Positions 8,673-8,940 of a stretch of DNA of 18,736 nt are shown piece after piece. The translations under genes were made by a program, and so were the position numbers. Source of the stretch: an uncultured Lachnospiraceae bacterium (lineage in GTDB: Bacteria > Bacillota > Clostridia > Lachnospirales > Lachnospiraceae); the NCBI GenBank assembly GCA_950087965.1, contig CATMZT010000056.1:1-18736 (forward strand), in the 5' to 3' direction. The notes under the pieces are model-generated. The model did not search any database. It saw nothing but the letters and a program-made list of their open reading frames with translations, and was not told the origin of the DNA. How positions within the stretch are numbered: position 1 is the stretch's first letter; each line of letters begins with the position of its first letter.

Positions 8673-8940
8673 AGGGGGAGGACGCTAGAGTTTGGAACCT
8701 ATTTCTTGCAGCTGTTCCGCTCTTCGGAAAGAAGAAGCTCTAAGACTTCTGAGTCTGGGTGTATCCAACCGGACGGAACGGGGTGCAATTCGCCCGTGCA
8801 GCGGGCTAAACACACCCCTTTTTTGCCATTCGAGAATGGCAAAAATCCTAGTGGATCGACAGAAGTCTAAGAGCTTCTAACTTTCCTCCGAAGTCACAGT
8901 TGCAAGAAAGAGGTTCCAAACTCTGGCTGTTTTTTCCTGT
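8673..8940 (+). repeat. Structured interspersed element (candidate ncRNA), copy R2, plus orientation, immediately upstream of the MVP gene
   Basis: Terminal stem gagtttggaacctatttcttgcagctg / cagttgcaagaaagaggttccaaactc. Inner stem agaagctctaagacttctg / cagaagtctaagagcttct. Conserved core 8769-8860. 3' tail ctggctgttttttcctg. G-rich 5' flank. Confidence 0.85.

Follow-up and report, generated by a model that had tools for sequence, protein, structure and literature searches.

The window analysed here is the 18,736-nt stretch at positions 1–18,736 of contig CATMZT010000056.1 (assembly GCA_950087965.1) of an uncultured Lachnospiraceae bacterium, and the element under study is a structured repeat that lies behind an FtsA-like gene (stop codon at 8604–8606) and spans 8684–8927 on the minus strand, from the first to the last base of its outer stem P0. 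It is copy 2 of five in the window. The first-pass annotation, made from the letters of the window, had all five in the right places, and its coordinates took in ~10–20 nt of conserved flank on each side; we give extents stem-to-stem, and the strand is the folding strand. Copy 1 (type B1, 24-bp P0) lies at 2771–3005 (+) between a tRNA-Leu gene and the zf-HC2/polA operon; the focal copy is of type A, as is copy 3 at 13324–13570 (−), 36 nt past the NAPRTase stop codon. Copy 4 (type A, 17983–18229, −) comes after thiC and stands head-to-head with copy 5 (18404–18632, +), a type B copy with B2-like flanks and alternative hairpins HA and HB, which points at the downstream HD_4 gene. Each copy is ~245 nt long, and the common parts are conserved termini, P0, an inner stem P1, a conserved multiloop and the hairpins HA and HB. 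The genes of the window are ordinary housekeeping genes (FtsX-type permease, tRNA-Leu, polA, coaE, FtsA-like, Major Vault Protein (MVP)/SPFH-like, NAPRTase, thiM, thiE, thiD and thiC). Because the intervening genes are unrelated housekeeping operons, the near-equal spacing of copies 2, 3 and 4 (starts, with flanks, at 8673, 13310 and 17971; 4,637 and 4,661 bp) was treated as coincidence.

The gap between the FtsA-like stop codon and the focal copy is filled by a tail at 8607–8683 (−) which is C-rich and G-poor (G-rich on the gene strand) and ends in a conserved GCGUCC. On the other side, the conserved flank TGTTTTTTCC(TG) at 8928–8940 (+) puts a T-run immediately behind P0 on the gene strand, and an intrinsic-terminator-like hairpin with its own T-run follows at 8957–8986 (+), outside the repeat.

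Copy number and family identity

The metagenome-assembled genome (MAG) MGBC128194, from an uncultured Lachnospiraceae of the mouse gut, served as sample of the source species: two of its contigs are 98.4–98.9% identical to the window, which therefore belongs to the same species, and 773 kb of it were searched by profile. A 20-base core pattern was found in at least 120 stretches, and all 80 of those listed come from MGBC128194, many of them at contig ends. An nhmmer profile built from the five copies gave 204 matches in the 773 kb, with 113 unique full-length copies; when copies cut by contig ends are included, 134 distinct 5′ arms are counted, hence at least 134 distinct copies. What had been described as a five-copy family is a dispersed repeat. 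Copies are at most 93% identical to their nearest neighbour (median 88.7%), in an assembly that breaks at repeats and in which very similar copies are possibly under-sampled; averaged over pairs of copies, identity is 0.50 for P0 and 0.83 for the core. No P0 arm is common to two loci among the 134 arms, contig-end copies included. Repeats of this kind likely fragment MAG assemblies.

Among the Rfam covariance models, the focal copy matches RF01731 (TwoAYGGAY) at 8719–8893 (−) with 63.7 bits (E=8e-9) over model positions 1–168 of 168, and copy 1 matches it at full length with 68.2 bits; the gathering score of the model is 43 bits. The first-pass annotation had assigned the repeat to no named family, a claim that these two matches overturn, and both matches lie on the strand opposite to the one it had taken. 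Copies 3, 4 and 5 gave no RF01731 match even at E≤10. In 18 loci of the source species five further copies, of ~40, pass, with 55–78 bits and on the same folding strand. A ribozyme or other named RNA was rejected, RF01731 being the only relevant Rfam match.

The architecture of RF01731, a long closing stem round a two-hairpin multiloop, is matched and is backed by the covariation described below, and so is its habitat (gut Clostridiales or gamma-proteobacteria), the source being an uncultured Lachnospiraceae. The AYGGAY motif is present in neither terminal loop: the loops UUCUCGAA of HA and GCUGCAC of HB are 7-nt insertions at the AYGGAY loops of the model, and AYGGAY loops are likewise absent across the consensus of 97 copies. 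Because the eponymous loops are missing and most copies escape the Rfam model, we treat the elements, as far as sequence comparison can place them, as a divergent branch of TwoAYGGAY and not as typical members. Standard Rfam annotation recognises ~1 copy in 8, and such repeats are therefore likely under-counted in gut genomes.

The original description of TwoAYGGAY (Weinberg et al. 2010, PMC2864571), which drew on human-gut metagenomes, Clostridiales and gamma-proteobacteria, remarks that the closing stem is often very large; a 2025 preprint still speaks of the family as ‘relatively unexplored’. The present elements resemble it in the long closing stem, the two-hairpin multiloop, the occurrence in gut Clostridiales, the several copies per genome and the convergent gene end downstream, as well as in the very large outer stem and in having no assigned function. 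They differ in the extra fixed-length clamp stem P0 and the conserved termini, which lie outside the Rfam model, and in a copy number in the hundreds; the human-gut members, in the part of the alignment considered, have the different termini GCAGAAC...GUUCRUGGAU. In the nine rows examined of the 2010 alignment, a reverse stop codon (‘PTS’) stands downstream in five, which suggests that classical members are likewise placed near stop codons if, as is our own interpretation, ‘PTS’ is taken as a reversed ‘STP’. Literature searches for a described Lachnospiraceae repeat of such kind gave nothing beyond the Rfam family.

Fold, covariation and folded strand

On its minus strand the focal copy folds into P0, P1 and a multiloop with HA and HB, with a minimum free energy of −129.5 kcal/mol. 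P0 is formed by 8684–8715 (5′ arm on the plus strand) and 8896–8927 (3′ arm), which are 91% complementary. P1, which the first-pass annotation had called the second stem, is formed by 8726–8751 and 8860–8886, and G-U/A-C counts and covariation bear on this pairing as given below. HB (GGGGUGUGUUUAGCCCGC...GCGGGCGAAUUGCACCCC on the minus strand) occupies 8780–8818 and has an invariant tandem U-G/G-U, and HA (UUUUUGCCAUUCUCGAAUGGCAAAAA, also minus) occupies 8819–8845. From the outside inwards the anatomy is conserved termini ACA/GC...GC/GUCC, the clamp P0, P1 and a conserved four-way core.

In the window, the P0 arms are 26–32 bp long and 91–100% complementary within each copy, and perfect complementarity, which had been claimed for every terminal stem, holds in one of the five. 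It had also been claimed that the stems differ entirely between copies; they are indeed variable, but the basal GCYAGAG/CTCTRGC and the apical CTGT/ACAG are kept, and a common ancestral pattern can be recognised. The length of P0 is fixed despite the variable sequence, at 30 bp in type A and 24 bp in type B (30–32 bp for the focal clamp). The idea that P0 arms are acquired ‘spacers’ was rejected, since a single pattern underlies the arms of different copies, which have diverged from one another in steps, mostly by transitions.

Covariation was measured in an alignment of 97 copies from the same species, with the consensus taken from RNAalifold. It predicts 71 pairs in five helices (P0 is helix 1, P1 helix 2, HA helix 3 and HB helices 4 and 5), and 48 of the 71 show double-sided changes, including 26 of 29 pairs in P0 and 12 of 21 in P1, so that the second stem covaries as had been said. 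Standard pairs make up 98.6% of alignment cells. The covariation score was 0.513, compared with 0.164 after shuffling (0 of 500 shuffles reached 0.513) and 0.07–0.10 when partners were slid by 1–3 columns. Together with the finding that no two copies are >93% identical, this bears out the earlier claim of selection on structure and supports the view that the element is non-coding, is selected for its secondary structure and is not recently transposed DNA. At such divergence, recent copying cannot account for 98.6% of pairs being intact; we infer that either each copy is selected to stay folded, or the arms are matched by some correction process. The alternative hairpin sequences of copy 5 (GGCACG/CGTGCC, GCCTC/GAGGC and CGGGCAC/GTGCCCG) recur in 16–20 of the 97 related copies, and alternative HA and HB sequences occur in varied combinations and in both A and B types, a mixture which suggests exchange between copies.

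After a transition in a stem, one strand has a G-U pair where its complement has A-C, and the ratio of the two was used to call the folded strand. On the strand of the Rfam matches, G-U:A-C is 75:5 in P1, 215:2 in HB and 92:51 in P0. The bias in P1 is alike in types A, B1 and B2, which face genes oppositely, and therefore is not a mutational strand effect. Moreover, the consensus energy is −128.8 kcal/mol for the folding strand versus −110.3 kcal/mol for the other, and single-sequence energies favour the folding strand in 104 of 111 copies. The strand kept folded by selection is the minus strand at the focal copy: the G-U/A-C counts, both kinds of energy and the Rfam matches all give, for the conserved core, the strand opposite to that of the first-pass annotation. 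P0 is a case of its own, with balanced counts in type A (61:44) and a bias in type B (31:7; Fisher p=0.010). Conservation extends to the unpaired junctions, where GGA occurs (UCGGAGGA, UAGGAU and UUGGAUG); GGA is confined to junctions, some of which are paired by RNAfold, and the hairpin loops are without it.

Placement beside genes

The full copies fall into three subtypes. Type A (74 copies) has a P0 of 30 bp, the 5′ flank CGGCAGGAAAAGACA and the 3′ flank GUCC followed by a C-rich tail. The P0 of types B1 and B2 is 24 bp; B1 (18 copies) has the 5′ flank ATTGTGGAAAAAGACA and a C-rich 3′ flank, and B2 (21 copies) has the TRTG/extended −10-like 5′ flank GAAACGTAAATTGTGGGACAATACA and the 3′ flank GTCCTCTTTGGGA, then a T-run in 16 of the 21. 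With genes called by a crude open reading frame (ORF) caller, a convergent gene end lies opposite the 3′ end of type A copies in 49 cases versus 20 (p=6e-4), i.e. these copies stand antisense behind genes, and type B2 is co-directional with the downstream gene in all 19 of 19, sitting upstream of the gene's own promoter-like sequences. All 22 close pairs (<1.5 kb) are head-to-head. Between stop codon and P0 the type A tail measures 60 nt (median) in the 44 copies that face a convergent gene end; its folding strand, in 40 copies, has 40% C and 6.6% G.

Read along the gene strand, the order at type A is stop codon, G-rich spacer, closed hairpin domain and T-run, the T-run being an A-rich flank on the folding strand which is present in 58 of 73 copies. 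The motif is CUCUGGC-UGUUUUUUCC, a stable stem and then a U-run, where a folded domain of 190 nt takes the place of the ‘loop’. Of the 37 type A copies that follow a gene, the focal copy and one other are the only ones with a further terminator-like site within 125 nt. The long stem with T-run that the first-pass annotation had seen on the plus strand does exist in type A copies, directly after genes.

That annotation had gone further and proposed a discrete ~250-nt plus-strand RNA reaching from G-run to T-run, with the long stem and U-run as its own terminator. The T-run frequency just given and the orientation of type A copies behind genes speak for it, as does P0 of type A, which tolerates wobble on either strand about equally; yet the counts in P1 and HB clearly show selection on the other strand, the plus strand is the less stable one in those 104 of 111 copies, and the T-run is absent from that strand in type B copies. 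The G-run, moreover, is a variable-length spacer starting at the stop codon and not a defined 5′ end. We consider this version highly improbable.

The likeliest reading of the role of type A would be that of a transcript-end module which acts in both directions. Seen from the upstream gene, the G-rich spacer, the large closed hairpin domain and the U-run could serve as a terminator or as 3′-end protection; on the folding strand, a structured RNA would be followed by a C-rich, G-poor, Rho-type tail ending before the gene. Type B2 would form a self-contained, small-RNA-like unit, with its TRTG/extended −10-like flank on one side and, after the clamp, GUCCUCUUUGGGA and a U-run on the other. No convincing sigma-70-type promoter was found ahead of type A copies.

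Since 2010 TwoAYGGAY has been without an assigned function, and the sole published idea is that of a CsrA sponge, with CsrA sequestered via the two AYGGAY loops (proposed in PMC4333381). For the present copies this would mean free-standing, trans-acting small RNAs that titrate an RNA-binding protein, with the core as platform and the clamp only holding it. Selection on one strand with RNA-like tolerance of G-U, the conserved unpaired junctions with GGA, and the promoter-like and terminator-like flanks of B2 copies are what such RNAs would show, and GGA in unpaired stretches is a likeness to Csr/Rsm sponges. RF01731 is also filed in Rfam clan CL00106, which we take to be the Csr/Rsm clan. Nevertheless, the AYGGAY-bearing loops of the classical family are replaced here by UUCUCGAA and GCUGCAC, hairpin loops without GGA, so that the sponge idea loses its main support in the present branch. 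Type A has no recognisable sigma-70-type promoter, and a trans-acting RNA would have no need of such strict placement by stop codons and ahead of promoters. To our knowledge, >130 genes for one sponge would be unprecedented, known sponges having one to few genes, and the copy number and fixed placement are unlike any known sponge. For these elements we regard a sponge as quite unlikely. With >100 independent, individually maintained copies in one genome and clear placement rules by stop codons and promoters, the function of the family becomes testable.

Several observations concern the flanks themselves. Spacers of close pairs often contain tandem repeats of the element's own flank motifs, and 3′ tails often repeat the terminal motif. 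Tandem arrays (22–68-bp units, 3–6 copies) abut either end of many elements and often consist of the terminal motif and adjacent flank, as if element ends were hot spots for local duplication; they were seen at 13576–13757 and 18257–18391 of the window and in L003, L023, L063, L067, L091, L098, L116, L113, L039 and L006. The array at 13576–13757 is a 3 × 65–66-bp repeat and abuts copy 3 at its 5′ flank, as seen on the folding strand. The one at 18257–18391, a 3 × 45-bp repeat in the spacer of copies 4 and 5, has in every unit TTGATTCNNGTATCCATAGAGG, the 5′-extension motif of type A. This 5′ extension, CCTCTATGGATNNATGAATCAAC, lies ~25–47 nt upstream of P0 on the folding strand, in window 18257–18391 and in ~15 of 73 type A copies of the MAG, and includes AUGGAU, a match to AYGGAY outside the hairpins.

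Occupied and empty sites, possible spread, and other features of the window

Relatives with ThiC proteins 91–92% identical to that of the window differ in which sites are occupied. In the L126–128 species a diverged A/B pair stands at the same thiC–HD_4 spacer, its P0 sequence entirely different yet paired, and in the L129–134 species (L129, L132) this spacer is an empty 120 bp. The NAPRTase–thiM spacer has 296 bp without the element in L126 versus 1,012 bp in the window, and the tandem array beside copy 3 is likewise absent from the L126 empty site. One convergent-gene site has ordinary hairpin terminators in L121 (of the window species) and L129, and in L126 a head-to-head pair of 140-nt elements.

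These 140-nt elements form an S family, with the same termini (ACA/GC...GC/GTCC) and a 24–32-bp variable clamp as in the main family, but a different 77-nt core which has its own compensatory changes; no Rfam match was found for it. Members are at L126 9905–10060 (−) and 10756–10895 (+), at L001 2347–2486, and on the minus strand in L066 and L118, and the family also occurs within MGBC128194. The pair in L126 encloses ~700 bp (10060–10755), and the same site is an ordinary terminator in two related species. A 167-aa ORF enclosed by this pair was rejected as a transposase: it has no Pfam, NCBIfam or PHROG match, and the only proteins related to it, 77 aa long, are encoded inside phage morphogenesis regions. 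By these relatives it is captured phage DNA, not a mobility enzyme.

We put at about an even chance that the repeat is an old, mobile-element-like structure which is kept folded copy by copy and serves as a transcript-end module. It would have spread anciently as a non-autonomous mobile element recognised via its termini and clamp, a mode that the S family, with the same termini and a different core, would fit; the copies would now be old, each maintained folded in place. Several points weigh against this. No partner transposase was found, and no copy in the 773 kb is interrupted by a gene or has a coding version. Direct repeats of ≥10 bp in the flanks, the lengths covered by the comparison, are no commoner than in shuffled pairings, the exact element ends not being fixed; near-identical copies were not seen (maximum 93%). 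Searches by blastn of 50,697 phage and 72,556 plasmid records gave no match, and the exact core pattern does not occur in viral contigs; an origin from phage or plasmid was rejected on the basis of these collections. The case for mobility is drawn from copy number and from presence/absence between species ~8% apart in ThiC protein. As to function, promoter, terminator and Rho-type tail are read from resemblance to consensus sequences only; selection on the core acts on the strand antisense to the gene, for which a pure terminator would give no reason; and an ordinary terminator stands directly behind the focal copy. Most copies are below Rfam detection (~5 of 40 in 18 loci), and without AYGGAY loops the homology to classical TwoAYGGAY could be partly convergent architecture.

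Known repeats offer partial parallels. The REP/BIME and REPIN elements of proteobacteria exist in hundreds of intergenic, hairpin-forming copies with compensatory arm changes, often at operon 3′ ends; they affect termination and mRNA stability and are thought to be mobilised in trans. REPs are simple palindromes of 20–40 nt with conserved sequence and an identified RAYT transposase, whereas the present element has ~245 nt, a four-way junction and a sequence-free clamp, and no partner gene was found for it. Bacterial miniature inverted-repeat transposable elements (MITEs) such as Correia, RUP and BOX are non-coding, intergenic and 100–400 bp long and can supply terminators or promoters, and BOX elements are modular, with mobilisation unknown. 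Typical of MITEs are conserved inverted repeats at the ends, duplicated target sites and a large number of near-identical copies. In the present element, ~10–17 nt are conserved at the ends and imperfectly inverted (GGAAAAGACAGCCAGAG versus GGGGAGGACGCYAGAG), and the remaining stem bases vary, so that the long inverted repeat varies by copy; target duplications of ≥10 bp are not in excess of shuffled pairings, no copies >93% identical were found, and the 773 kb contained no full-length partner sharing these ends. That every copy is unique contradicts a plain active MITE.

A second way of accounting for the spread is purely selfish hairpin DNA without a host role, moved as single-stranded DNA by a HUH-type transposase acting in trans, in the manner of REPINs or IS200/IS605-derived palindromes. 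The high, intergenic copy number, strand-specific folding with G-T tolerated, conserved termini common to two different cores, arrays of terminal fragments at both ends and presence/absence between sister species all agree with such an origin. But the copies are unique (≤93%) and share no P0 arms, yet 98.6% of their pairs are intact, which points to maintenance in place with no recent burst; and types A and B are oppositely oriented to co-directional genes, so to replication, unlike elements that track the lagging strand. The four-way core with its conserved junctions is also far more elaborate than known transposase-recognised hairpins, and no transposase was found. We see a small though real chance for this explanation. 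The transcript-end module could also be a case of something wider: the termini and the sequence-free, length-fixed clamp may be an undescribed ‘vehicle’ for interchangeable cores (TwoAYGGAY-like, or the 77-nt core of S) which has colonised ordinary transcript ends and now replaces them, each of the >100 copies being selected as a two-way stop, with hairpin and U-run on the gene strand and structured RNA with a Rho-type tail on the opposite one. This proposal is a tentative one, to which we give a limited chance; if true, it would tell what TwoAYGGAY, an orphan family for 15 years, does and how it spreads.

A second dispersed repeat, unrelated to the main element, is present in the window at 2676–2724 and 14218–14266, inverted and 94% identical, with the form AACCTCATCAAGGAAGTCCC...GGGACTTCCTTGATGAGGTT, then ...AGCGGATTGCGAATATCCGATTTGAC, and has no Rfam match within the window. 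It also occurs in L104, L035, L068, L024, L051, L006 and L118, often in spacers beside the main element. Near copy 1, the tRNA-Leu (CAA) at 2364–2447 (+) has a long variable arm and is followed by a terminator-like hairpin at 2461–2491. A thiamine pyrophosphate (TPP) riboswitch (13818–13928, +, 67.7 bits) stands ahead of thiM-thiE-thiD-thiC, with a terminator-like expression platform at 13930–13960. Finally, the gene at 9019–11457 (+) encodes an 812-aa protein with an MVP shoulder, Vault_3 repeat domains and SPFH/Band 7, a set of domains that is unusual for a Firmicute; its location beside copy 2 is probably coincidental.

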